Positions 23-16,366 of a stretch of 16,548 nucleotides of DNA are shown here, one piece after another (the stretch's first letter is position 1; the number at the start of each line of letters is the position of its first letter). The notes under the pieces are model-generated. The model saw only the letters and a program-made list of their open reading frames with translations. It did no database searches and was not told the DNA's origin. Location: sequence record LR881103, one strand, 5' to 3'. The position numbers were made by a program, and so were the translations under genes. The DNA comes from Escherichia phage vB_KppS-Ant.

Positions 23-379
23 ATGGCAAGACCACCCAAACCGCCCGCTTACCTTGATGAAATCGCGGCGCAGCAGTGGAAAGCAAAGGCGAAGCAACTG
101 GCGGAACGCGGTGATCTGACGCCTGCCGACTGGAACAACCTTGAGCTTTATTGCGTCAACTACTCGATGTACCGCAAAGCCGTGAAGGACCTTGCCGCGC
201 GGGGATTCAGCATTGTGAACAGCCAGGGTGGTGAGAGTCGCAACCCGGCCCTGAGCGCAAAGGCTGATGCCGAAAAAATTCTCATAAAAATGTCGTCTCT
301 GCTGGGCTTTGATCCGGTAAGCCGTCGCCGCAACCCGCCTGAAACTGAAGAGGAAGACGAACTTGACCGCATGGAATGA
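23..379 (+). CDS. terS: Phage terminase small subunit (P27-like family)
   Basis: 118 aa; N-terminal PPKPPAYLD...W, central LTPAD...LE.YC and C-terminal NPAL...GFDPVSRRR pattern typical of P27-type small terminases; sits directly upstream of and overlapping the large terminase. Confidence 0.75.
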   Translation: MARPPKPPAYLDEIAAQQWKAKAKQLAERGDLTPADWNNLELYCVNYSMYRKAVKDLAARGFSIVNSQGGESRNPALSAKADAEKILIKMSSLLGFDPVSRRRNPPETEEEDELDRME

Positions 380-2024
380 TTACGCCATCGCCATAAAATC
401 GGGCGAAATTCCGGCCTGTAAGCGGGTAAAACAGGCCGTCGAAAGGTACTTTTCAGACCTGAATGACCCCCGTTACGTGTTCGATACAGCGACCGTAGAG
501 CGGTTTATTGCGTTCTCCCGGCTTTGTCCTCACGTCAAAGGGCCGTTGCGCGGTCAGCCTATCATGCTGGAGCCGTGGCAGCAGTTCGCCTTTGCTAACC
601 TGCTGGGCTTTAAGGTCAGTGCTACGGGGCGCAGGAAGTACAGCAGCGCCTTTATCGAGGTGCCGCGTAAGAATGCCAAATCCACCGTAGCTGCAATGCT
701 GGCTAACTGGTTTCTGGTGATGGAGCAGGGCCAGCAAGACATTTACACGGCGGCGGTGAGCCGGGATCAGGCTCGTATCGTGTTCGACGATGCCCGTCAG
801 ATGTGCCTGCTGTCAAAACCGCTGAAAAAGCGCGTGAATATTCAGGCTCATAAAATGATTTTCCCGAAGAATAACAGCCTGTTAAAGCCGCTGGCGGCGA
901 AAGCGGCCACCATCGAGGGGACGAATCCCAGCCTGGCTATTGTCGATGAGTACCACCTTCACCCGGATAACGGCGTTTACTCCGCACTTGAGCTGGGTAT
1001 GGGGGCACGTCCTGAAGCGGTTTTATTCGCCATCACCACCGCCGGGAGTAACGTTGTTTCTGCCTGCAAGCAGCATTACGACTACTGCTGTCAGATTCTG
1101 GCCGGGGAAGAGAGCAACGATTCGCTGTTTGTTCTGATTTACGAACTGGACGACGAAAGCGAGGTTGATCAGCCTGAAATGTGGATCAAGGCTAACCCGA
1201 ATCTGGATATCTCCGTTGATGCGGCAAAACTGGAGGCCACTATCCAGAAAGCACGGGGCATCCCGTCGCAATGGGTGGAGATGCTGACCAAACGTTTCAA
1301 TATCTGGTGTCAGGGTTCCACACCGTGGATGGGCGCGGGGGCCTGGGACGCCTGCAAACTCGACTATGAAGAAAGCGAGCTGGCCGGAATGGAATGTTAT
1401 GCAGGTCTGGACTTGTCCTCAACCAGCGATATCACCAGTGTAAATTACGCTTTTCCGTTCGACAGGGAGATTAGGTTACTGACAAGGCACTATCTGCCGG
1501 AAGCGACACTTAATAATGTTTCCAATAAAAACCGCGCCATTTACCGCCAGTGGGTGAAAGCAGGCTGGATTCGTACCACTCCCGGCGACTGCATCGATTA
1601 TGACCGCATCCGCGACGATATTCTGCGCGATGCCGAAACATTCAATATCCGTCTGGTGGGCTTCGATACGTGGAACGCCACGCATCTGCGTACCCAACTA
1701 CAGGGGGCGGGCCTTGAGGTAGAGCCGTTCCAGCAAACCTATCTTAAATTCAGCCCGGTAGCGAAATCGTTTGAAGTGTTCGTTAACCGCAAGGTGGTGC
1801 GCCATCGCGGCGATCCGGTACTGGCCTGGGCGATTGGTAACGTGGTGATGGAGTCCGACGCCAACGCCAATATCAAGCCCAACAAGAAGAAATCCTCCAA
1901 CAAGATTGATCCGGCAGTGGCTGCGTTAATGGCGTTCGGCACATTCCAGGCTGAGCATGAGGATTTTGCATTTGATATGAGCGAAAGCCACAAAGATCGC
2001 CTCAGTCATTTTGACGGGGTGTAA
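363..2024 (+). CDS. terL: Phage terminase large subunit (ATPase/nuclease)
   Basis: 553 aa; Walker A-like VPRKNAKST and Walker B-like LAIVDEYH; C-terminal nuclease-like region; TTG start overlapping the terS 3' end with AGGA 8 nt upstream. Confidence 0.85.
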   Translation: MTAWNDYAIAIKSGEIPACKRVKQAVERYFSDLNDPRYVFDTATVERFIAFSRLCPHVKGPLRGQPIMLEPWQQFAFANLLGFKVSATGRRKYSSAFIEVPRKNAKSTVAAMLANWFLVMEQGQQDIYTAAVSRDQARIVFDDARQMCLLSKPLKKRVNIQAHKMIFPKNNSLLKPLAAKAATIEGTNPSLAIVDEYHLHPDNGVYSALELGMGARPEAVLFAITTAGSNVVSACKQHYDYCCQILAGEESNDSLFVLIYELDDESEVDQPEMWIKANPNLDISVDAAKLEATIQKARGIPSQWVEMLTKRFNIWCQGSTPWMGAGAWDACKLDYEESELAGMECYAGLDLSSTSDITSVNYAFPFDREIRLLTRHYLPEATLNNVSNKNRAIYRQWVKAGWIRTTPGDCIDYDRIRDDILRDAETFNIRLVGFDTWNATHLRTQLQGAGLEVEPFQQTYLKFSPVAKSFEVFVNRKVVRHRGDPVLAWAIGNVVMESDANANIKPNKKKSSNKIDPAVAALMAFGTFQAEHEDFAFDMSESHKDRLSHFDGV

Positions 2025-2035
2025 GGAGAAAGATT

Positions 2036-4333
2036 ATGGCAGGTAAATCATTAGGCACTCTCACCATTGACCTGATCGCCAGAACCGGCGGTTTTGTCCA
2101 GGGTATGGATAAAGCCGAACGTTCATCACAAAAATGGCGGGATAACGTTAAAAAAGATGCCGCAGCCGTGGGTTCAGCCCTTGCTGCTGTTGGCACAGCC
2201 GCAGCAGCGGCGGCTATCGGTGTTAGTGCCGCTGGTATTGCACTGGTAAAAAATACCTCAGAGCAGATCACTGAAACTGATCGCTGGGCTAAATCGCTAA
2301 AAATGTCTACTCAGGATTTGCTTTCATGGCAGTTTGCTGCTGAGAAAGCAGGGTTGACCGGGGATAATATTGCTGACATCTTCAAGGATATTAACGATAA
2401 AGTCGGCGATGCTGTCCTGAACAAGTCAGGTGAGGCTGCTCAGGCTCTGGATACTCTCGGGCTTTCAGCTGAGAAACTGGCCCAGCAATCCCCTGATAAG
2501 CAGTTACTGGCTATCAGCTCGGCATTGCAAAAAATCCCCTCTCAGGCCGGGAAAACTAATATCCTCGAAAGCCTGGGGAATGACCTGTCAAAAATGCTGC
2601 CGTTGTTCGACAACAATAACGAGAAGCTGAAGCAGTTTATCCAGCTGTCAAAAGATTTTGGTGTCGCTCCGCCCCAGGAGGATATTGATAACCTGGTTAA
2701 GGTTAATCAGTTTTTCCAGGATATTGAGAGCAGTGCACAGGGGTTAAAGATCGAGATTGCCAGTGGCCTGGCTAAAGTAGACCTCTCACCGATTCAGGAT
2801 GGACTTGATGATATCCGGGATGTGTTTACCGATCCTGCTGTTCTGTCAGGTCTGGCAAAGCTGGTCGGAGGGATGGCGGAACTTGTTGGCTGGATGGGTA
2901 AGCTAAGTTCTGAATCTGCTAATTTTCTCAGCCATATATTTGAAGTGCCTGACAGGTTTAAGGCGGGTGGCTGGTACGAGTTTGAAAAAAATCAGAGATT
3001 AGGAGCAATAGCAGATACGCTTCAATCAGATTTAGGGGGAATAACTAAACCATCTTCAAACTCTGAGTTGCCAATAAATAATAACCTGCTCCCCGGGCAG
3101 AGCAATCAGAAACAAACTCAAAAGCCTGATGCTGAGGCAAAAAAACTTGAAAGTGCCTATAAAGCCGTAGAACAGTCATATTTAAAGCAAATTGCGCTGG
3201 TGGATCAGCTAACCGGGAAAACCAAAGACGCCACTGAAGTAGAAAAACTACATTTCGATTTAGTATCTGGTCGTCTGGTTGGGATAAATAAAGAACAGCA
3301 AATCAGGCTTGAGGGCTTGGCCTCAGAAGTTGATAAATATAACGCGTTGTCAAAATTTCGAGATTTGCAGGATGAGTTATTAACTCCAGAAGAAAAATTA
3401 CTTAAAACGACGAGAGAACGTTTTGAAATATTAAAAGATATTCAGGGAATGAAGGGGATCAGCCCTGATGAATATAAAAAAGCAGCAGAAGCCATATCGA
3501 AAGATTCATTTACAGATATGCCTAAATTTAGTGGTCTTGATCCGATGTTTGGCGGTCAATCTGGAGAGTTAAGAAAAGTTGATGACGCACAGAAAGAACA
3601 GGAAAAATGGTATCAGAATCAGCTCGATTTGCTGGAACAGAACCGTCAGGCACGTTCTGACCTTAATGATGAGTGGGATGCCAGAGAGCTTGAACTGAAG
3701 AAAAAACACCAGGATGAAATGAATAAGCTCGATGAAGCCCGTAATCAGCTGATGTTGAGCAGTGTTGTCGATGGGCTTGGTTCTATGGTGGATTTGACCC
3801 GTACAGCTTTTGGTGAGCAATCAGGAGTATACAAAGCCGCGTTTGCAGTTCAGAAAGCCGCGGCTATTGCTCAGTCTGTTATCGCTATCCAGCAGGGGAT
3901 CGCGATGGCGGCTGCAAACCCTTTCCCGTACAACCTTGCAGCGATGGCCAGCGTAGCCGCTTCTACAGCCGGTATTGTGTCGAACATTGCGGCCGTGGGT
4001 ATGGCTCACGATGGTATTGATGCTGTTCCAGAAACCGGAACATGGCTTCTCCAGAAGGGCGAACGCGTAGTCACGGCGAATACCAGCGCGAAACTGGATG
4101 CGACCCTTAACCGTGTCGCCCAGCAATCCACTTCTGGTAATCAGATTTCCCAGGAATTTAATTTTAACGTTAATGGCGATCCTTCTGATGCTCAGATAGC
4201 CATGATGAAGAAAGCGGCCGCTGACGGTGCCAAGATGGGGTATCAAAAGGCGGTCAATTCAGTAATTACTGGTCAGGGTGATTTGCACAAGGCTCTGATG
4301 ACGAAAACTAATTCAGGCAGAAAAATAGGGTGA
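2036..4333 (+). CDS. Tail tape-measure-like protein (lambda gpH family architecture)
   Basis: 765 aa; N-terminal GTLTIDLIARTGGFVQGM segment followed by an Ala-rich hydrophobic stretch; long central charged Lys/Glu/Gln-rich helical region; C-terminal hydrophobic Ala/Gly-rich block then GIDAVPETGTWLLQKGERVVTANTS, which resembles the conserved C-terminal motif of lambda-family tape-measure proteins; strong RBS (AAGGAG) upstream. Confidence 0.65.
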   Translation: MAGKSLGTLTIDLIARTGGFVQGMDKAERSSQKWRDNVKKDAAAVGSALAAVGTAAAAAAIGVSAAGIALVKNTSEQITETDRWAKSLKMSTQDLLSWQFAAEKAGLTGDNIADIFKDINDKVGDAVLNKSGEAAQALDTLGLSAEKLAQQSPDKQLLAISSALQKIPSQAGKTNILESLGNDLSKMLPLFDNNNEKLKQFIQLSKDFGVAPPQEDIDNLVKVNQFFQDIESSAQGLKIEIASGLAKVDLSPIQDGLDDIRDVFTDPAVLSGLAKLVGGMAELVGWMGKLSSESANFLSHIFEVPDRFKAGGWYEFEKNQRLGAIADTLQSDLGGITKPSSNSELPINNNLLPGQSNQKQTQKPDAEAKKLESAYKAVEQSYLKQIALVDQLTGKTKDATEVEKLHFDLVSGRLVGINKEQQIRLEGLASEVDKYNALSKFRDLQDELLTPEEKLLKTTRERFEILKDIQGMKGISPDEYKKAAEAISKDSFTDMPKFSGLDPMFGGQSGELRKVDDAQKEQEKWYQNQLDLLEQNRQARSDLNDEWDARELELKKKHQDEMNKLDEARNQLMLSSVVDGLGSMVDLTRTAFGEQSGVYKAAFAVQKAAAIAQSVIAIQQGIAMAAANPFPYNLAAMASVAASTAGIVSNIAAVGMAHDGIDAVPETGTWLLQKGERVVTANTSAKLDATLNRVAQQSTSGNQISQEFNFNVNGDPSDAQIAMMKKAAADGAKMGYQKAVNSVITGQGDLHKALMTKTNSGRKIG

Positions 4334-5122: not shown

Positions 5123-6343
5123 ATGGCTGGCGAACTTAACAAACTGAGCGACAGGAAGTTAAAGGGATTACATGGTATCCCGGCCAGTAAGATTGAGTTC
5201 TATGCTGATGGTGCCGGGCTGAGCGCCAAGGTAACTAAAGCTGGTGGTATTAGCTGGGTGTTTACTTACCGACTCGACGGGCAGAAGCTGCATCGTCTTA
5301 CTCTGGGACGATACCCGGATATGAGCCTCAAAGAGGCCCGTTCTTCGCGTGATAAATGCCGCCAATGGCTGGCCTCAGGTAAAGATCCAAAGCACCAGTT
5401 GGCGCTGACCACTCAGGAAACGCTTAAACCGGTCACTGTTAAGGAAGCTATAGAATACTGGATACGCGAATATGCAGAAGAGAACCGCGCGAATGTTGAA
5501 CGGCACAAAGCGGAGCTGCGAAAACACATTTATCCTTATATAGGGAAAATGGCGCTCGCTGACTGTGAAACACGATACTGGCTTGACTGCTTTGACAGGA
5601 TGAAAAAGAAAACTCCAGTCGCCGCAGGTTATGTGTTCCAGATGTGCAAACAAGCCCTGAAATTCTGCCGGGTTCGTCGCTATGCTGTGAGTACCGCGCT
5701 TGAAGATTTAACAATTCCAGATGTCGGTAAAAAACAGGCAAAAAAAGACCGGGTATTAAACGATAAAGAGGCTGGCGATTTATGGGCTGCCATTTCCTCT
5801 GGCACTTGCTTCATGCCTTACTACACCAGGCTACTGACAATCTTAATGGTGTTTGGGTGCCGAACGCAGGAGGCCAGGCTATCAGAGTGGAGTGAATGGG
5901 ATATGGATGCCTGGGTCTGGACAGTTCCCAAAGAGCACAGCAAGGGCGGCGAGAAGATTGTAAGACCTGTGCCGGATGCCATGCGCAAATTCATTGAAAT
6001 ACTGCATGATGAAACGAAACGATCCGGCCTTTTGCTTGGGTCGGTTAAAGGCAGTGAAGCGGTAAGTCAGTGGGGCCGCGGTGTTTATAAAAAGCTGGGG
6101 CATTCTGAACCATGGACACTGCACGATCTAAGACGAACTTTAGCAACGCATATGAATAATATGGGTATAGCACCACACGTTGTCGAACAGTTGTTGGGGC
6201 ACTCAATGCCGGGAGTTATGGCGATTTATAACCGTAGTCTGTACTTGCCTGAGAAACTGGATGCGTTGAATAAATGGTATGACAGACTTGATATTTTATC
6301 AGGTGGATTCACTAACATTGTTTTGTTGAATAGGGCTGAATAA
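5123..6343 (+). CDS. int: Tyrosine site-specific integrase, P4-type (N-terminal arm-binding domain plus C-terminal catalytic domain)
   Basis: 406 aa; N-terminal L.D.K...GL.....G..W.F.YR..G.....LG.YP..SL.EAR...D pattern of P4-like integrases; C-terminal HDLRRT ... LLGH ... Y catalytic signature. Confidence 0.9.
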   Translation: MAGELNKLSDRKLKGLHGIPASKIEFYADGAGLSAKVTKAGGISWVFTYRLDGQKLHRLTLGRYPDMSLKEARSSRDKCRQWLASGKDPKHQLALTTQETLKPVTVKEAIEYWIREYAEENRANVERHKAELRKHIYPYIGKMALADCETRYWLDCFDRMKKKTPVAAGYVFQMCKQALKFCRVRRYAVSTALEDLTIPDVGKKQAKKDRVLNDKEAGDLWAAISSGTCFMPYYTRLLTILMVFGCRTQEARLSEWSEWDMDAWVWTVPKEHSKGGEKIVRPVPDAMRKFIEILHDETKRSGLLLGSVKGSEAVSQWGRGVYKKLGHSEPWTLHDLRRTLATHMNNMGIAPHVVEQLLGHSMPGVMAIYNRSLYLPEKLDALNKWYDRLDILSGGFTNIVLLNRAE

Positions 6344-7583: not shown

Positions 7584-7868
7584 ATGCAAAATATAACCTT
7601 TACCCCGCCAAATCCTGAACAACGCCGCACCCTTTTAGAAGAGTACGGCTTTAAGTTTGATCGCCGAATCCGTGAAGATGAATGCAGCGAGATCACCAGT
7701 CTTTCCCGTTCCAGCCGCTGGAAGATGGAACAGCAGGGGCGCTTCCCTCCGCGCTGTCACTTTGGCCGCAATAGCTGTGCTTGGCTTCTTTCGGATGTGC
7801 TCTGGTGGGTTCGTAATCCGCCAGCAGTAGAGAACGTCAATAACCCATACAGCCGTAAATCTGCTTAA
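7584..7868 (+). CDS. alpA: AlpA-family phage transcriptional regulator (excisionase-like HTH)
   Basis: 94 aa; ...SEITSLSRSSRWKMEQQGRFPPRCHFGRNSCAWLLSDVLWWVRN matches the AlpA-family HTH pattern; GGAGG RBS; position downstream of int as in P4-like and PICI elements. Confidence 0.7.
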   Translation: MQNITFTPPNPEQRRTLLEEYGFKFDRRIREDECSEITSLSRSSRWKMEQQGRFPPRCHFGRNSCAWLLSDVLWWVRNPPAVENVNNPYSRKSA

Positions 7869-7888: not shown

Positions 7889-8581
7889 ATGAAAAAGATT
7901 AATGCCCTCCACGGGCAGGGATTCGCTCACCCTGTAGCCAGCCAGCACGATATTTCAGCGAACCGTAAACAGGTTATTGCCGGTGACTGGTCGCCCATTA
8001 ATCGCGGTGAATTTACGCTTGCCGATCTGGGGTTGCGCCACAACGGTAACGGGCTGGTGTGGCTGCGTTCCGGCGTGTCCGTGCATGAGGCAGACCATGA
8101 TGCAGGGATAAGCGGCAAGGACAAGACCAAAGGAAGGGTTAACGGCCTTCCTTTTGAATTTGTCGGCCAGTGGCAGGAATACCCGACTAAACGCAGCTTT
8201 GCCGTTTCAGTATCTACGGAACTACGGCGCCAGTATTACCCGGACGATGCCGCATTCAGTAAGGCAATGCGTGAGGCTGGTTATGTTCCGGTGCGCACTC
8301 GCAAACTGACCGGAAAGGATGCTCGTTTTTGGCTGTACCGTGTAACGGGCAATGATAAGGGGGTTGTCGCAGCAGAATCCGCGCCACACAAGGCTTGCGC
8401 GCCAGTTGTCCAGACCATATCTAAGCCTCATCCGTGGTTTAAGCGTGTGGCACTCGATGGTAAATGGCAGTACGTCTACGCAGATCACATCCGCTTTCTG
8501 ACTAAAAAGCGTCATCGCGTCGATGGTGTTCGGGTTCAGGGGTATACCGCTGGCGGGCTGAAAGTGGAGGCTATTGTATGA
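7889..8581 (+). CDS. Hypothetical protein (230 aa) between alpA and the replication module
   Basis: Protein-like composition; stop overlaps next potential start (ATGA); function not recognisable from sequence. Confidence 0.55.
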   Translation: MKKINALHGQGFAHPVASQHDISANRKQVIAGDWSPINRGEFTLADLGLRHNGNGLVWLRSGVSVHEADHDAGISGKDKTKGRVNGLPFEFVGQWQEYPTKRSFAVSVSTELRRQYYPDDAAFSKAMREAGYVPVRTRKLTGKDARFWLYRVTGNDKGVVAAESAPHKACAPVVQTISKPHPWFKRVALDGKWQYVYADHIRFLTKKRHRVDGVRVQGYTAGGLKVEAIV

Positions 8582-8593
8582 CAGGCAAAACAA

Positions 8594-8615
8594 AGGCGGC
8601 CATGCCGGGCCGCCT
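8594..8615. other. GC-rich hairpin (8-bp stem, 6-nt loop) right after the 7889..8581 stop; terminator-like for minus-strand readthrough
   Basis: AGGCGGCC-atgccg-GGCCGCCT; the U-tract lies on the minus-strand side (complement of aaaacaaa at 8586..8593). Confidence 0.35.
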
Positions 8616-8923
8616 GAGTCTCAACGCTTTACTGAAACATCGCCAGATTACCAGGCTTGCCGCTGGTGGTCAAACCTTGAGCCAACGAAATCCGTACGCA
8701 CAAATTAACCGCGTACGTTTAACGTACGGACATCGCAATCCATTGAAGGAACTTGATTATAACGAATCGTTAGAATCGGCTGGCAACAAACACGAACAGT
8801 ATTCGGGTTCGCCTGAACATCAACACTGCTTAGGTTCAGAGGTTCCGACGAATAACGTAGAGAGCTGCGAAGATAACCAACCCTCTTTAAGAGGTGAGCC
8901 TCTGCACAACGCATTAAGAGTTG

Positions 8924-8950
8924 CGCAAAACAACCCCTCTTTAAGAGGGG
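8924..8950 (-). terminator. Rho-independent terminator for the minus-strand RHH gene
   Basis: Minus-strand reading: CCCCTCTT-a-AAGAGGGG followed by ttgtttt, about 35 nt downstream of the 8982 stop; a second similar palindrome CCTCTTTAAGAGG lies at 8881..8894. Confidence 0.55.
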
Positions 8951-8981
8951 CAGTTCACAGCATTACGGAGAGTAACCCTGT

Positions 8982-9185
8982 TCAGCTTTCAGGTTCCGAT
9001 CTGGCTTTCTTGCGCTGCTCAGATTTGAGTTTGCGCCCGCAGGCATCCAGAACCCACGCAGAGAAATTAGCACCGGCGTTATCTGCTTTCTCTCGCTCTA
9101 CGCTGGCGTCAATCTCTTCAATAAGTTCGTGCGGAAATCGTATCTTTTTCTGCGCTGATTTAGCGTTTACTGCCTTAGTAGCCAT
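8982..9185 (-). CDS. Small ribbon-helix-helix-like DNA-binding protein (67 aa), candidate repressor
   Basis: KIRFPHELIEEIDASV...NFSAWVLDACGRKL fits a beta-strand / helix / helix RHH (Arc/CopG-like) layout; strong RBS AGGAGG 4 nt before ATG; own terminator; divergent from the replication operon promoter. Confidence 0.55.
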   Translation of the reverse strand: MATKAVNAKSAQKKIRFPHELIEEIDASVEREKADNAGANFSAWVLDACGRKLKSEQRKKARSEPES

Positions 9186-9198
9186 TTACCCTCCTGCG

Positions 9199-9271
9199 TA
9201 TAGTGAGGGTACACCATATCAGAAAAATAGCTTGACGTGTACCCCCACCGAAAATATAGTGGGGGTGCACC
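9199..9271 (+). promoter_or_regulatory. Near-consensus sigma70 promoter (TTGACG-17-TATAGT) overlapped by three operator-like 12-mers GTG(A/G)GGGT(A/G)CAC
   Basis: -35 TTGACG 9232..9237, 17-nt spacer, -10 TATAGT 9255..9260; 12-mers at 9203..9214 (+), 9237..9248 (inverted) and 9259..9270 (+); 17-bp direct repeat tatagtgagggtacacc / tatagtgggggtgcacc. Confidence 0.55.
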
Positions 9272-9363
9272 TTGAGGTTGAAGATACTCAAGATACAGCG
9301 AAGCCCGGCAGTGTTACCAGCACTAACCGGGCCTCTGACCACAACGTAACTGAGGCTTACATC

Positions 9364-9552
9364 ATGGCTTGTATACAGCATACCCAAACTCGCCCCAAAT
9401 ATCAGTATCGTTTTCTTGCGCTGAGCGCCATCGGGCGCAACGTCATTCACATCACCGCTACCACTGAGCGCGAAGCCCGTGAGCAATCACCGGATGGATG
9501 CGTGATGGTATTCGCTGGTCGTCTGCCAGTTCGGGAGGGGCACCATGCGTGA
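9364..9552 (+). CDS. Possible small leader protein (about 62 aa), 3' portion of the long ORF 8578..9552
   Basis: ATG at 9364 with GAGG 8 nt upstream, downstream of the 9232..9260 promoter; sequence MACIQHTQTRPKYQYRFLALSAIGRNVIHITATTEREAREQ... looks more protein-like than the upstream part of the frame. Confidence 0.3.
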   Translation: MACIQHTQTRPKYQYRFLALSAIGRNVIHITATTEREAREQSPDGCVMVFAGRLPVREGHHA

Positions 9553-9739: not shown

Positions 9740-9954
9740 GACAGGTTCCTTTTGAAGTCCTGATGCACGCTGAAAATGCCCTTTCTGAAAGCGAAGGAGC
9801 CTATGAGGTTCTCAGCATGTGGCTAGACAGTATTCCTGAAAGCGAGGAGTTCCACGGTGAAGCGTGCAAGGTAAGCGCAATCATGTCGCTGCTGCATAAA
9901 TCTATCGGCGAGCTGGTGAAAGCGCGGGAGGCTTACAGTGAAAAACGCGCCTAA
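9736..9954 (+). CDS. Hypothetical small acidic protein (72 aa)
   Basis: ATGA overlap with the upstream ORF; Glu-rich; overlaps the helicase start. Confidence 0.45.
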   Translation: MRQVPFEVLMHAENALSESEGAYEVLSMWLDSIPESEEFHGEACKVSAIMSLLHKSIGELVKAREAYSEKRA

Positions 9955-11689
9955 TGTGAAAACCCTCCCGCGCGACAAAATGGAGGAGGCCATCATCTTT
10001 GCTGGAACGGGAGCATGGAAAGCCGCTCAGGATTACCAGAAAGGGAAGGGCGAGCATGGAGACGATGTTCCGCCTGTGGTTCTGGATCACACCCAACTGG
10101 CGGAATTACCACACCTGCGCATTGTTGATAAAGGCCGTCGATTTGCCCGTGTCTGTCAGGCCGGGCTTATCGAGCAAAACCAAATCAGCATGATTGCAAA
10201 TAAGTTGTGTGAGGCTGGCGTTACCAATGCTGAGTTTATCAACGAACAAGGCGAGAAAGAGGACTGGACGCCATTGATGAAACGTCTGGAAGACGAGCCC
10301 CTTATGGTGACTACGAGGGGAAGTGCTACGCCAGCGCTTAACCAGATGGGAGCCAGCCAGCGCGGGGAAGTTCTGCTTGCTCATTACAATGGCAATCTGG
10401 CGATCCATGCTGATTCCGACACGGTTCATCATTACAACGGCGTGGTGTGGGTTCCGCTTTCGGATAAAGAGCTGCAGCGAGAAATGGCGCAGATTTTTAT
10501 TGATTCCGAAGTCGCCTATTCGCAGAACGCGATTAAATCCGCTGTCGATACAATGAAGCTGGGCCTCCCGGTAATGGGTAACACAGCCCGTAACCTGATT
10601 GGTTTCAGCAACGGGGTTTTTGATACCCGGTTAGGCCAATTTCGACCGCATGATAAAAAGGACTGGCTTATCGTTGCGAGCGAATTGCCATTCAGCGAAC
10701 CAGCAGAAGGTGAAACTCTGGCAACCCATGCGCCTAACTTCTGGAAATGGCTCCGCCGCTCTGTGGCGGATAATGACCGAAAAGCAGACCGCGTACTGTC
10801 TGCGCTGTTTATGGTGCTGGCGAACCGGTACGACTGGCAGCTGTTTCTTGAGGTAACGGGGCCGGGCGGAAGTGGTAAAAGTGTCATGGCTGAGATCTGC
10901 ACGATGCTGGCGGGCAAGGCCAATACGGTATCGGCGAGCATGGCGGCGCTGGAGAACCCAAGGGAAAGGGCGCTGGTAGTTGGCTATTCGCTGATTATCA
11001 TGCCGGATATGACCCGGTACGCTGGCGACGGCGCAGGGATTAAAGCTATCACTGGCGGGGATAAGGTGGCTATCGACCCAAAACACAAAGCGCCATATTC
11101 AACCCGTATCCCGGCGGTGGTGCTGGCCGTCAATAACAATGCTATGACGTTCAGTGACCGCAGCGGCGGTATTTCAAGGCGACGGGTGATTTTCAACTTC
11201 ACCGAAGTAGTGCCGGAAAACGAACGCGATCCGATGCTGGCCGAGAAGATTGAAGGAGAGCTTGCGGTAATCATCCGGCATCTGCTTGTGCGCTTTTCCA
11301 GCCAGAACGAAGCCAAACAGCTTTTGCATGAGCAGCAGAAATCAGAAGAAGCGCTGGCCATCAAACGTGAAGGGGATTCACTGGTGGACTTTTGCGGATA
11401 CCTGATGGCTTCGGTGGTTTGTGATGGAATGCTGATTGGTAATGCCGAGATCGTGCCATTCAGCCCGCGCCGTTATCTGTATCACGCTTATCTGGCTTAC
11501 ATGCGGGCCAATGGTCTTAGCAAGCCTGTATCGTTAATGCGGTTCGGTACGGATATGCCAGGCGCAATGGCTGAATATGGCAAGGAGTACCAGAAGCGCA
11601 AAACTAAAAATGGCATAAGATCGAACGTCACCCTGCATGATGATTCAGAAGACTGGATGCCAATGTGTACCGATACAACAAAAGAATAA
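9938..11689 (+). CDS. Replication protein: P4-alpha / D5-family SF3 helicase (phage/plasmid primase C-terminal type), probable origin-binding initiator
   Basis: 583 aa; Walker A GPGGSGKS about 300 aa in; D5_N-like region upstream (HYNGVVWVP); GTG start with GGGAGG RBS; iteron cluster immediately downstream. Confidence 0.8.
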   Translation: MKNAPNVKTLPRDKMEEAIIFAGTGAWKAAQDYQKGKGEHGDDVPPVVLDHTQLAELPHLRIVDKGRRFARVCQAGLIEQNQISMIANKLCEAGVTNAEFINEQGEKEDWTPLMKRLEDEPLMVTTRGSATPALNQMGASQRGEVLLAHYNGNLAIHADSDTVHHYNGVVWVPLSDKELQREMAQIFIDSEVAYSQNAIKSAVDTMKLGLPVMGNTARNLIGFSNGVFDTRLGQFRPHDKKDWLIVASELPFSEPAEGETLATHAPNFWKWLRRSVADNDRKADRVLSALFMVLANRYDWQLFLEVTGPGGSGKSVMAEICTMLAGKANTVSASMAALENPRERALVVGYSLIIMPDMTRYAGDGAGIKAITGGDKVAIDPKHKAPYSTRIPAVVLAVNNNAMTFSDRSGGISRRRVIFNFTEVVPENERDPMLAEKIEGELAVIIRHLLVRFSSQNEAKQLLHEQQKSEEALAIKREGDSLVDFCGYLMASVVCDGMLIGNAEIVPFSPRRYLYHAYLAYMRANGLSKPVSLMRFGTDMPGAMAEYGKEYQKRKTKNGIRSNVTLHDDSEDWMPMCTDTTKE

Positions 11690-11719
11690 AGGCGGGGAAA
11701 ATTAAAAGTAATGGGATAA

Positions 11720-11950
11720 GTGTTCACCACTGTTCACCATGTATAAAAATCATTAAATAACAATATGTTAATGGGTGAACACTTTTTTATGAAGTGTTCA
11801 CCAAGTATTCACCTGTTCACCCTGTTTTATCTTTTCCTCAGTTTGAGGTGAAGGGTTGGGTGAACACTAGTGAACACCTGAAAGAATAGTATTCACCCTG
11901 TAACTATATGAATTTAATTAATAAATTATCAAAGGTGAACAGGTGAACAC
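11720..11950. promoter_or_regulatory. Origin-like iteron cluster: at least 10 copies of TGTTCACC / GGTGAACA (and the TATTCACC variant) in both orientations in AT-rich DNA
   Basis: Copies at about 11721, 11731, 11774 (inv), 11794, 11805 (variant), 11814, 11859 (inv), 11869 (inv), 11889 (variant), 11934 (inv), 11942 (inv). Confidence 0.65.
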
Positions 11951-12095
11951 TTAAACGTATATTTTTTAATTTTATTGAGCAACGCAGGATCACTTCCAGC
12001 CTGGAATACCTGGGATCAATCATGGAACACGCACCGTGGAATATTAAAAGCTAATATTTTTGTAAATTATTTGTATTCATGTTTACTCATTCTTA

Positions 12096-12123
12096 CCCCC
12101 GTCTTTTGCGGGGGTTTTCTTTA
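12096..12123 (+). terminator. Rho-independent terminator between the replication and head modules
   Basis: CCCCCG-tcttttg-CGGGGG (6-bp GC stem) followed by ttttcttt. Confidence 0.6.
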
Positions 12124-12289
12124 TATTTTTCATGTATATCTTGAAGAGTGGCACTCAGACGTGAGCCGCCACTGGCCGTTAAGTCAAGCTGTAGCGAGTA
12201 CAGCCTGCGAGAGGCAGAAAAAGATTTAACGGCCTCCCCTCCAAGCGCTGGTTTCACGTCTCTACATTAATTGATACGGAAACCACTCC

Positions 12290-13450
12290 ATGAAGAAACT
12301 ACTCGAATTACGCCAGCAGAAAGCCGCACTCAAAACACAGATGCGTTCCATGCTGGACAAAGCCGACACCGAAAAGCGCAGCCTGAACGAAGAAGAGGGC
12401 AAAAAGTTCGACGAACTCCGCGCACAGGCTGATGCGCTTGAAGTTGAAATCAACCGCCTTGAAGCCGTCGCCGAAGATCAGCGCAATCTGCCTGGTACTT
12501 CCGTTGAAGGTGATCCAGTAAGCAACGACGAGCTGCGCCACTACATCATGACCGGTGATACCCGTTCTCTCTCCACGCTGGTGCAGGCTGACGGCGGTTA
12601 TACCGTTATCCCTGAGCTGGACAAAGAGATTATGCGCCAGTTGCAGGATGATAGCGTGATGCGCTCCATCGCAACGGTGAAGACCACCAAAACCAACGAA
12701 TACCAGAAGCTGGTATCTGTGGGCGGCACTACCGTTAATCGTGGTACCGAAGGTGAGGCACGTACCGAAACCAGTACGCCGAAGATGGAGCGCGTTGATA
12801 TCAAACTCAACCCGATCTACGCCTACCCGAAAACCACTCAGGAGATTCTCGACTTCTCCGAGGTGGATATTTTGGGCTGGCTGTCTTCTGAAATTGCCGA
12901 CACCTTCACCGCGACCGAAGAAAGCGACTTTGTGAACGGCGACGGTGATAAAAAATCCAAAGGCTTCCTGTCTTACCCTCGCGCGGCCACTGCCGACAAA
13001 ACCCGTCCGTTCGGTACGCTGGAGAAGATGGAAGCGGCTGACGTTTCCTCTGATGGCCTGATCGACCTGCTGTATAAGCTGAAAGCCAAATACCGCAAAA
13101 ACGCCGTATGGGTGATGAACTCCAACACCGCAGCCAAACTGCAAAAGCTGAAAAACGGCAACGGGGATTACATCTGGCGCGATCGTCTGGTTGCCGGTTC
13201 TCCCGATACCCTGCTGGGCCGTCCGGTTCAGTACCTTGAAACCATGCCTGATGCTGATGCCGGAGAAGCGTTCCTCGCGGTTGGCGACTTCAAGCGCGGT
13301 TACTTCATCGTGGATCACACTACTGGTGTGCGTACCCGCCCTGACAACATCACCGAGCCGGGCTTCTATAAGGTTCACACCGATAAATATCTGGGCGGCG
13401 GCGTGGTGGACTCCAACGCGATCAAGATTCTGGAGCTTGCTGGTTCCTGA
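12290..13450 (+). CDS. Major capsid protein, HK97 fold/family
   Basis: 386 aa; N-terminal coiled-coil delta-domain-like region (KKLLELRQQKAALKTQ...), then ADGGYTVIPELDKEI and the overall HK97-family pattern. Confidence 0.85.
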   Translation: MKKLLELRQQKAALKTQMRSMLDKADTEKRSLNEEEGKKFDELRAQADALEVEINRLEAVAEDQRNLPGTSVEGDPVSNDELRHYIMTGDTRSLSTLVQADGGYTVIPELDKEIMRQLQDDSVMRSIATVKTTKTNEYQKLVSVGGTTVNRGTEGEARTETSTPKMERVDIKLNPIYAYPKTTQEILDFSEVDILGWLSSEIADTFTATEESDFVNGDGDKKSKGFLSYPRAATADKTRPFGTLEKMEAADVSSDGLIDLLYKLKAKYRKNAVWVMNSNTAAKLQKLKNGNGDYIWRDRLVAGSPDTLLGRPVQYLETMPDADAGEAFLAVGDFKRGYFIVDHTTGVRTRPDNITEPGFYKVHTDKYLGGGVVDSNAIKILELAGS

Positions 13451-13460
13451 TTCGACGTGT

Positions 13461-13477
13461 GAGGGGCTTCGGCCCCT
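13461..13477 (+). other. Stable hairpin with UUCG tetraloop between capsid and protease genes (possible attenuator or mRNA stabiliser)
   Basis: AGGGGC-ttcg-GCCCCT; only a short U-run follows. Confidence 0.35.
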
Positions 13478-13501
13478 TTCTGCCCTCTGTGGAGTCCAAT
13501 A

Positions 13502-15637: not shown

Positions 15638-15923
15638 AACTATTGAACTTGCTGAAGCAAAACTTCACTGCCGTATTGATGGCGATGATGAAGATTTGCT
15701 CATTCAGGCTTACATCGATGCGGCTCTGGAGGTTTGCCAGAAACATATCGGCAAGCGGTTTGATAGTGGGCTGGAGCTTACCCCGGCTATCAAAATCGGT
15801 TGCCTGATGTACGTCTCTCAGTTGTACGAGTACCGCACGATGATTAGCGATGTGGAGGCGAAAGAGGTTCCTCTTGCTGTCTCAGCGCTGTGGTCTGTCT
15901 ATCGTGACGTGGGGGTGTACTGA
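15630..15923 (+). CDS. gp6-like head-tail connector protein
   Basis: 97 aa; LAEAKLHCRIDGDDEDLLIQAYIDAA...; GTG start overlapping the upstream gene. Confidence 0.65.
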   Translation: MAETIELAEAKLHCRIDGDDEDLLIQAYIDAALEVCQKHIGKRFDSGLELTPAIKIGCLMYVSQLYEYRTMISDVEAKEVPLAVSALWSVYRDVGVY

Positions 15924-16366
15924 TGCCGTGGCAACCCTTACGCCGTTGCACTGAGCCGGGATGCAACAAGCGCGTGAAGTCTGGTAAATGCGATGAGCAT
16001 AAACGGGAGGTGTGGCGGGCACAGGATGCCAGACGCGGCCACCGTCGCGCCCGTGGTTACTCAGCAGCATGGGAGAAGTATCGCGCCCAGTATCTAAAAC
16101 GCTATCCCCTGTGCGCTGAGTGCCAGAAGCAGGGCCTCTTCGTTCCTGCAAAGATTGTCGATCACATCATCCCTATCGACGGCGGTGATGATGTTCTGTT
16201 CTGGCCTGAGTGGAATCACCAGCCGTTATGCCAGACGCATCATAACCAGAAGACCACACAGCAAGACCCTATCACCAAAGCCAATCGCAAAGCGGGGATG
16301 TACCACGAGCAGGAAGAGCGGGCAGCACAGCGCAATAACTGGATGTATGAGGTTGATCATGAATGA
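15923..16366 (+). CDS. HNH endonuclease (terminase-associated type)
   Basis: 147 aa; Cys pairs CTEPGC and CAECQ plus DHIIPIDGGDD...NHQPLCQTHHNQK HNH signature. Confidence 0.85.
   Translation: MPWQPLRRCTEPGCNKRVKSGKCDEHKREVWRAQDARRGHRRARGYSAAWEKYRAQYLKRYPLCAECQKQGLFVPAKIVDHIIPIDGGDDVLFWPEWNHQPLCQTHHNQKTTQQDPITKANRKAGMYHEQEERAAQRNNWMYEVDHE

Follow-up and report, generated by a model that had tools for sequence, protein, structure and literature searches.

A conserved three-helix mRNA leader, a candidate translational switch, precedes the capsid gene of capsid-forming phage satellites

We have found that the 164 nt lying between an intrinsic terminator and the ATG of the major capsid gene in Escherichia phage vB_KppS-Ant (record LR881103) include a structured mRNA leader of ~140 nt (12148-12289). 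The leader is made up of three helices, H1, H2 and H3, with a pyrimidine-rich linker between the last two. As judged from comparison of the sequences, more than a hundred capsid-forming phage satellites share this leader, and it is most likely a new cis-regulatory mRNA element that would work as a translational switch. The positions given here are those of the window, i.e., the whole stretch of 16,548 nt that was analyzed.

The satellite and its packaging operon

We identify the window as a capsid-forming phage-inducible chromosomal island (cf-PICI). Pfam and PHROG matches identified int, alpA, a primase/replication module, capsid, protease, portal, connectors, HNH and the terminase subunits, which is the gene set of these satellites, and the gene order agrees with the annotation of the E. 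coli relatives L001-L003 (Table 1). Since terS and terL are located at the start of the window and HNH at its end, the satellite is apparently circularly permuted. Downstream of the capsid gene we found the prohead protease, the portal, head completion and connector proteins, and HNH. The field of iterons that follows the primase gene is presumably the replication origin of the satellite. No tRNA or tmRNA was detected by scanning the whole window, and a cos site in the leader interval found no support; the only other gap in the operon of the relatives is just upstream of terS. Two further observations concern the neighbourhood of these genes. Directly after terL there is an ORF of 765 aa (2036-4333) that matches a tape-measure protein family (E = 2e-176), in contrast to the description of cf-PICI satellites as devoid of tail genes. 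Besides, the 51-nt gap that follows the capsid stop codon contains a strong hairpin, GAGGGGC-UUCG-GCCCCUU, with a short U tract (13461-13478), which could be an attenuator or a stabiliser setting the capsid-to-protease ratio.

Table 1. Position of the genes, promoter motifs and leader segments in the window.
Feature	Position	Strand	Remarks
terS	23-379		At window start
terL	363-2024		At window start
Integrase	5123-6343		
AlpA	7584-7868		ORF of 94 aa as called
D5-type primase	9938-11689		
GGTGAACACT iterons	11718-11952		Dense field of direct and inverted copies, directly 3' of the primase gene
Upstream block TTGTAAATTATTTGT	12060-12074	+	Invariant in alignment A1; may serve the capsid promoter as an activator site or as a bent-DNA element
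Intrinsic terminator	12095-12123	+	8-bp stem at 12095-12115 with 6 G-C pairs, then T run TTTCTTTA
-35-like hexamer TTTTCT	12115-12120	+	Weak, 3/6 to TTGACA; 16-nt spacer; assigned from position and conservation
-10 hexamer TATCTT	12137-12142	+	Family consensus TATnTT; ends 5 nt before H1
H1 hairpin GUGGC-A-CUCA-GACG-UGAG-CC-GCCAC	12148-12172	+	25 nt, 5'-terminal; segments 1 and 2
Segment 2 AGACGUGAGCCG	12157-12168	+	Loop, 3' inner arm and CC bulge of H1; alternative partner of 12249-12261
H2 long helix	12174-12234	+	Lower stem 12174-12185 / 12223-12234; inner hairpins 12188-12204 and 12205-12217
Linker UCCCCUCCAAGCGC	12235-12248	+	Pyrimidine-rich; almost all homologues leave it unpaired in their minimum-energy fold
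H3 UGGUUUC-A-CGU...ACG-GAAACCA	12249-12285	+	Segments 3 and 4; 3' arm holds GGAA 12278-12281
HK97-type major capsid gene	12290-13450	+	Pfam Phage_capsid, E = 9.6e-69; opens the operon that the leader serves
HNH	15923-16366		At window end

Folding and conservation of the leader

The initial annotation had described nested inverted repeats in this interval, and both of the repeats that it named are there: GTGGC-A-CTCA-GACG-TGAG-CC-GCCAC, with arms GTGGCACTCA..TGAGCCGCCAC, at 12148-12172 (first given as 12148..12175) and GCTGTA-GCGAG-TACAGC at 12188-12204 (first given as 12190..12206). The nesting applies only to the GCTGTA hairpin, which is enclosed by a larger repeat, whereas the first repeat stands alone. 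That enclosing repeat, GGCCGTTAAGTC/GATTTAACGGCC (12174-12185 / 12223-12234), is the largest of the region and had been missed; it also contains a second hairpin, CTGC-GAGAG-GCAG (12205-12217). Neither had the helix formed by TGGTTTC..GAAACCA (12249-12285) been described, nor the complementarity of 12157-12168 to 12249-12261. The ribosome binding site had been called weak, and indeed there is only a GGAA (12278-12281) located at least 9 nt before the ATG at 12290.

The fold of positions 12126-12295 has an energy of -62.8 kcal/mol, to be compared with -40.8 ± 4.0 kcal/mol for 200 dinucleotide shuffles (z = -5.5), none of which was as good. When 80 distinct leaders were folded one by one the same layout of H1, H2, linker and H3 was common to them. 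We have aligned 88 distinct leaders (alignment A2), in which 90.8% of the cells are paired, against 34-43% when the partners are slid by 1-3 columns. Both sides have changed in 18 of the 41 pairs, a covariation score that was reached by none of 500 shuffles, and RNAalifold independently recovered H1, the H2 stem and the inner pairs of H3. Cells with G-U numbered 147 versus 62 with A-C, in 53 of 74 cases the segment between H1 and H3 was more stable when folded as the plus strand, and H3 shows one-sided changes from U-A to U-G together with covarying apical pairs. The G-U excess, the stability of H2 on the plus strand and the U-A to U-G changes of H3 indicate that the strand that folds is the sense strand of the capsid mRNA.

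The three helices differ in the way they are conserved. Of 119 distinct leaders, 105 have the same H1, across many genera that go from Escherichia to Proteus and Pectobacterium, and its variants keep the pairing: the Yersinia-type clade (L177, L204-L214) has GUGAC/GUCAC together with CUCC/GGAG, L148 and L266 have AUGGC/GCCAU, and L228 carries a G-U pair. The bases immediately before and after H1 do not covary, so that the hairpin ends at the foot given in Table 1. In H2, by contrast, 11 of the 12 pairs of the lower stem have undergone changes on both sides, with up to five pair types per position. This helix alone folds with -30.3 kcal/mol, and its distal part adopts several architectures among the relatives, such as a three-way junction or a plain hairpin interrupted by an internal loop. 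The sequence of the linker varies among the homologues and remains C/U-rich. As to H3, at least 5 of the 7 nucleotides of the Shine-Dalgarno region are paired in the predicted minimum-energy fold of 92% of 114 distinct leaders, with a mean unpaired probability of 0.14; a subclass that we call ETEC-type has a predicted competing hairpin, GUGUUGGUU/AACCAAUAC, and there the Shine-Dalgarno region is less clearly hidden.

A reading of the palindromes as promoter or operator sites, implied by the initial annotation, is not supported. They are located 3' of the -10, in the transcribed leader, and the compensatory changes in 11 of the 12 pairs of the large stem, along with its many G-U pairs, indicate that the repeats are RNA helices and not DNA sites for a protein. 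Leader lengths go from 124 to 149 nt among the relatives and the distance from H1 to H3 varies by ~25 nt, a variation that fits an RNA insert and not phased DNA sites. We have also considered, and rejected, two coding functions. A 10-codon leader peptide could run from the ATG at 12132 to the TGA at 12164, overlapping the -10 and the 5' half of H1, but its ATG is not conserved and the conservation pattern is that of a -10 element. A protein-coding function of the leader is at odds with lengths that, within the range of 124-149 nt, differ by non-multiples of 3 and with an H2 that comes in several architectures.

Pairing between the first and third helices

The 5' arm of H3, UGG-U-UUCACGUCU (12249-12261), can pair with segment 2 in a helix of 12 bp that includes one bulge and two G-U pairs. 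The resulting helix is mutually exclusive with the inner stem of H1 and with the whole of H3. Its pairing is kept in 97.7% of the cells over 88 leaders, and both of its strands are invariant apart from the Yersinia-type change. In the leader of the window the fold constrained to contain this helix has -50.7 kcal/mol, compared with -57.4 kcal/mol for the minimum, which is a cost of 6.7 kcal/mol; the average cost over 114 leaders is 5.1 kcal/mol. The nucleotides of H1 that are invariant in spite of being unpaired, i.e., the loop GACG and the bulge CC, are all paired in the alternative helix, and the only unpaired base of H1 that falls outside of it, A12153, is the one that varies.

The Yersinia-type leaders provide a linked substitution. 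Whenever H1 carries a U-to-G change, the bulged A of H3 has turned into C, as is the case in 9 out of 9 leaders of this type versus 0 out of 110 others. The first of these changes maintains the inner stem of H1, and the second affects a base that is a mere bulge in H3 and that is located opposite to the first in the alternative helix. This substitution gives the alternative helix the support of one evolutionary event, in a single clade. A second compensatory event was sought by scanning viromes with TGGTTTCBCGTC..GGAA, which is too unspecific a pattern, and only the Yersinia type appeared among the matches listed. In favor of the alternative helix are thus the pairing in it of the invariant unpaired bases, the linked substitution, and the location of the weak Shine-Dalgarno sequence in the 3' arm of H3, where it is predicted to be paired in most leaders. 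Another partner for the 5' arm of H1 was looked for within the element, in trans or at long range; the best candidate, a complement of 10 out of 11 positions at 16116-16126 in HNH, is found in only 4 of 95 relatives and we attribute it to chance.

Another possible role is that of a passive element of stability or processing in which H1 blocks decay that depends on the 5' end, H2 is a site of the RNase III type and nothing switches. H1 is at the predicted 5' end. RNase III substrates, such as the processing sites of T7 and lambda, are long stems that are kept while the sequence drifts, and by analogy H2 might be one of them, being a long stem with an internal loop or junction that is also kept as its sequence drifts. 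However, a protective hairpin does not require identical sequence, loop and bulges across genera, and the 12-bp complementarity to H3 and the linked change at a bulged base are left unexplained. A purely passive role is for us unlikely, even if it is the strongest of the competitors. A function in stability or processing would likely come in addition to the switch and is compatible with it.

Comparison with known regulatory RNAs

Searching the whole window against Rfam 15 at the gathering thresholds gave no family match, and at E <= 10 over 11650-12400 nothing overlapped 12147-12289 except for a chance match of 6.9 bits. A structured mRNA leader with competing helices is nevertheless a well-known kind of element. 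Mutually exclusive helices are found in attenuator-type leaders like the trp leader (1:2 / 2:3 / 3:4), the lambda cIII mRNA and the 5' leader of the MS2 maturation gene. The leader described here resembles them in having four consecutive segments with a choice of partners (1 or 3 for segment 2, 2 or 4 for segment 3), and also in that the last helix hides an expression signal, in this case the Shine-Dalgarno region. Like the attenuator-type leaders of phages, it is cis-acting, phage-borne and located between the promoter and the first gene. It differs from attenuators in the lack of sequence relation, of a conserved leader peptide and of a terminator being formed (none was called in the leader downstream of the start), as well as in the long variable helix, H2, that is inserted between segments 2 and 3.

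The other comparison that deserves attention is the putL site of phage HK022, an RNA of ~70 nt with two stem-loops with which the transcript begins, next to the promoter. It acts in cis as an antiterminator, suppressing termination and pausing through the beta' zinc-binding domain of RNA polymerase. The satellite leader bears a loose resemblance to it, with two adjacent stem-loops of similar total size that would start at or near the predicted +1 and with a highly conserved core. The sequences are not similar, the second hairpin (H2) is here free to vary, and put has no counterpart for the helix H3 at the ribosome site or for the alternative pairing between H1 and H3. On these grounds H1 and H2 might be thought of as a put-like RNA that, while nascent, binds RNA polymerase and makes it resistant to pausing or termination along the ~10-kb packaging operon. 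Position and shape recall putL, with H1 and H2 adding up to 87 nt, separated by 1-4 nt and starting at the predicted +1; the invariance of H1 across genera is what a partner as conserved as RNA polymerase would produce; and the hairpin with a short U tract found after the capsid gene (13461-13478) is a possible terminator to be overridden. On the other hand, blastn (word size 7) against positions 27000-33000 of HK022, which contain PL and PR, gave only 9-nt chance matches (E = 3.6), H2 changes in sequence and architecture in a way not expected of a surface that docks to polymerase, and convincing intrinsic terminators were not seen on the plus strand of the operon. Antitermination also leaves without explanation H3, the hidden Shine-Dalgarno, and the complementarity between H1 and H3 with its linked substitution. 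We regard this proposal as decidedly improbable. Still, the extreme invariance of H1 could equally reflect the binding of a protein or of RNA polymerase.

A last possibility at this level is that the conserved parts are DNA operators, with a dimeric regulator (AlpA, a satellite repressor or a helper protein) binding to the H1 palindrome at +1..+25 and to an inverted copy at 12254-12261. H1 overlaps the predicted start site, its 8-bp core AGACGTGA recurs inverted ~97 bp downstream, and both copies have changed together in the Yersinia-type clade, which is also what the evolution of a symmetric operator would give. Against this, the intervening H2 certainly is not a sequence-specific site, given that it covaries and contains G-U pairs, and the spacing between the copies varies by up to ~25 bp among relatives, a bad arrangement for phased looping. 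To extend the complementarity beyond the identical 8 bp, G-U pairs and a bulge have to be admitted, and these have a meaning only in RNA. Moreover, the motif is not enriched elsewhere in the element (GACGTGAG had 8 matches in the window versus 9.3 expected). Operators are thus excluded for H2 and unlikely for H1, and as an account of the whole region we give them very little credence.

Promoter of the capsid operon

The capsid operon very probably has a promoter of its own, as the initial annotation had proposed. The conserved -10, the presence in relatives of upstream genes on the opposite strand and the terminator found in the window support this part of the proposal; the repeats are not part of the promoter. 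In the E. coli relatives L001-L003 the gene directly upstream of the promoter is on the opposite strand, so that the capsid operon cannot be there a continuation of the replication operon, and yet the -10, the spacing and the leader are the same. The hexamer TATnTT has nearly invariant T1, A2 and T6 in 106 distinct promoters (conservation per position in sequences anchored on H1), and TATCTT has the A2 and T6 typical of a sigma-70 -10 located 5-8 nt before the start that we predict at 12147-12150 (~12148), the foot of H1. A simple consensus scan calls no promoter at 12115-12142, because the -35 is too weak to be detected. The terminator had been correctly recognized (its coordinates were off by 1-2 nt): it has a stem at 12095-12115 of 8 pairs, 6 of them G-C, and a T-rich tail that reaches ~12123, and it stops the transcription that arrives from the replication and ori side. 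Its T tract overlaps the -35 region. Relatives have at this position either an equivalent hairpin of different sequence or else a gene on the opposite strand, and in those without a terminator the -35 is TTTACA or TTTACT.

Further upstream, the block TTGTAAATTATTTGT is found at a fixed distance of 87-88 bp before H1 in 21 of 22 genomes that carry the leader. It is present as a single copy in the window, without a second site, and is followed on its 3' side, up to ~12094, by TGTTTWC-like repeats with a phasing of ~10 bp. Both this block and the promoter architecture as a whole persist in Xenorhabdus elements that do not have the leader. The weak -35 and the fixed distance of TTGTAAATTATTTGT make it plausible that the promoter depends on an activator. 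The initial annotation had suggested AlpA or a helper factor for this function, and none of our analyses pointed to either of them. We have noticed that an ORF of 324 aa (8578-9552) has a C-terminal domain matching phage transcriptional-repressor families, and its product could be a candidate regulator acting on the conserved upstream block. Apart from this, a promoter-like TGAACA-16-TATATT is located ~130 nt 5' of the terminator stem and could make an RNA of ~150 nt. That region (11936-12123) has only sub-threshold matches in Rfam, to GcvB (E = 0.04) and OmrA-B (E = 0.1), which are probably driven by the terminator.

Operon I of the SaPIs is controlled through a LexA box and phage late activators, and the late promoters of P2 and P4 have an activator site near -55. 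The situation described here is similar in that the morphogenesis and packaging operon of a satellite is read from a weak promoter of its own, preceded by a conserved element, implying an activator that works in trans. A LexA box (CTGT-N8-ACAG) was not found at the promoter: the only CTGT..ACAG (12189-12203) has a 7-nt spacer, falls inside H2, downstream of the predicted start, and varies among relatives. Unlike in P2 and P4, the upstream block is at about -88 and not at -55, and there is no TGT-N12-ACA dyad. To our knowledge, none of the SaPI or P2/P4 packaging-operon systems has a structured leader like this one.

The target of the Pseudomonas AlpA, the one AlpA target that has been characterised, has GGGACG between the -35 and the -10, a pause element resembling a -10 in the initially transcribed region and a downstream terminator. 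There is some resemblance to the loading sites of Q and of this AlpA, as a short conserved TTTTTCATG is placed between the -35 and the -10 of a late-type promoter and the element codes for a protein of the AlpA family; nevertheless, within 12115-12290 there is no GGGACG, nor a -10-like hexamer of the ANNNT type in +1..+15. Finally, read-through without any separate promoter, with the folded region as an intercistronic spacer and the terminator at 12095 overcome by, e.g., antitermination of the AlpA type, is hardly credible: a terminator does lie directly upstream, the Pseudomonas AlpA is a proven antiterminator and the consensus scan found no promoter, but the relatives with upstream genes on the opposite strand keep the same -10, spacing and leader, TATnTT is conserved at exactly the right distance, the sequence lacks what characterises the Pseudomonas AlpA site and the satellite AlpA ORF, with 94 aa, is much shorter than the Pseudomonas protein.

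Distribution among satellites

The exact 25-nt H1 is present in at least 120 viral contigs, among the matches listed, and at reduced identity H1 matches were found in 170 of 5426 complete E. coli genomes, as well as in a few plasmid records of Klebsiella, Morganella and Salmonella and in two phage records. Two of the Klebsiella "plasmids", CP018459.1 (16,971 bp) and NZ_CP069874.1 (15,995 bp), have the size of a satellite and contain both the leader and the capsid gene; these entries probably represent satellites in their excised, circular form that were deposited as plasmids. A search with the capsid protein, restricted to one genome per species, retrieved 80 loci, 20 of them with the exact H1 and 2 with variants, whose capsid proteins were 68-98% identical to the query. 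The loci bearing H1 belong to Enterobacter, Citrobacter, Pluralibacter, Phytobacter, Kosakonia, Pantoea, Pectobacterium, Erwinia, Rosenbergiella, Serratia, Proteus, Hafnia, Xenorhabdus and Yersinia. H1 precedes the start codon of a capsid gene by 124-146 nt in all of the relatives but one. The exception is a viral contig (L061, positions 880-1130) that has the upstream block, H1 and an H2-like helix without H3 or a capsid gene downstream, and is probably a recombinant or decayed element.

Other satellites have something different at the same site. In those of Xenorhabdus and Arsenophonus a non-homologous structured leader is found behind the same promoter blocks, with an analogous alternative pairing of three segments beside the Shine-Dalgarno that covaries in L185. 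Satellites of Orbales have yet another unrelated structured leader. The loci with unrelated leaders are L155, L157, L164, L185 and L256, where they lie ~135 nt before the capsid ATG, together with L182-L184, L276 and L282. Behind the same promoter, the leader of many Xenorhabdus elements is only a short AU-rich sequence, which indicates that the three-helix leader is not essential for the operon. That unrelated structured leaders occupy this site suggests that the synthesis of the capsid has repeatedly required control at the post-transcriptional level.

A model for the control of capsid synthesis

The explanation that we favor is that a promoter helped by an activator and the three-helix leader together form a cis-acting, post-transcriptional switch on capsid translation, and we consider that this has about an even chance of being correct. 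RNA polymerase would start at ~12148 from a sigma-70-type promoter composed of the -10 TATCTT, the weak -35 and, with the help of an activator, TTGTAAATTATTTGT at about -88. The first ~140 nt of the mRNA would then fold into H1, H2 and H3, the last of which would pair the Shine-Dalgarno region with UGGUUUC. We infer two states: when segments 1:2 (H1) and 3:4 (H3) are paired the ribosome site would be hidden, while the pairing 2:3 would leave it free. In this manner the leader might set or time the translation of the capsid, and H1, being a 5' hairpin, probably also stabilises the mRNA. A more specific version, which we put forward only as a speculation and think rather unlikely, is a new class of RNA switch, specific to capsid-forming satellites, in which a factor present only during the late phase of a helper phage, be it a helper or host protein or a modified polymerase, recognises the invariant H1 and opens it, so that 2:3 forms and the ribosome site is exposed, the leaders of Xenorhabdus and Orbales being convergent solutions. 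If this were true, capsids would be built only while the tails of the helper are being made.

Satellites that form their own capsids need heads that are timed and dosed relative to the tails of the helper. The control of the packaging operon is not discussed in the cf-PICI literature that could be searched, and a search of cf-PICI and PICI publications for promoter, transcript, leader or AlpA site gave nothing relevant, as far as the cf-PICI papers could be searched. Neither this family of leaders nor its distribution or its association with the capsid genes of satellites seems to have been described before. The leader, the upstream element at a fixed distance and the two-state model provide a concrete and testable target for the study of how this operon is controlled. 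The leader is also a candidate for a new RNA family in the mobile elements of Enterobacterales, and a possible handle for the engineering of delivery particles based on satellites.
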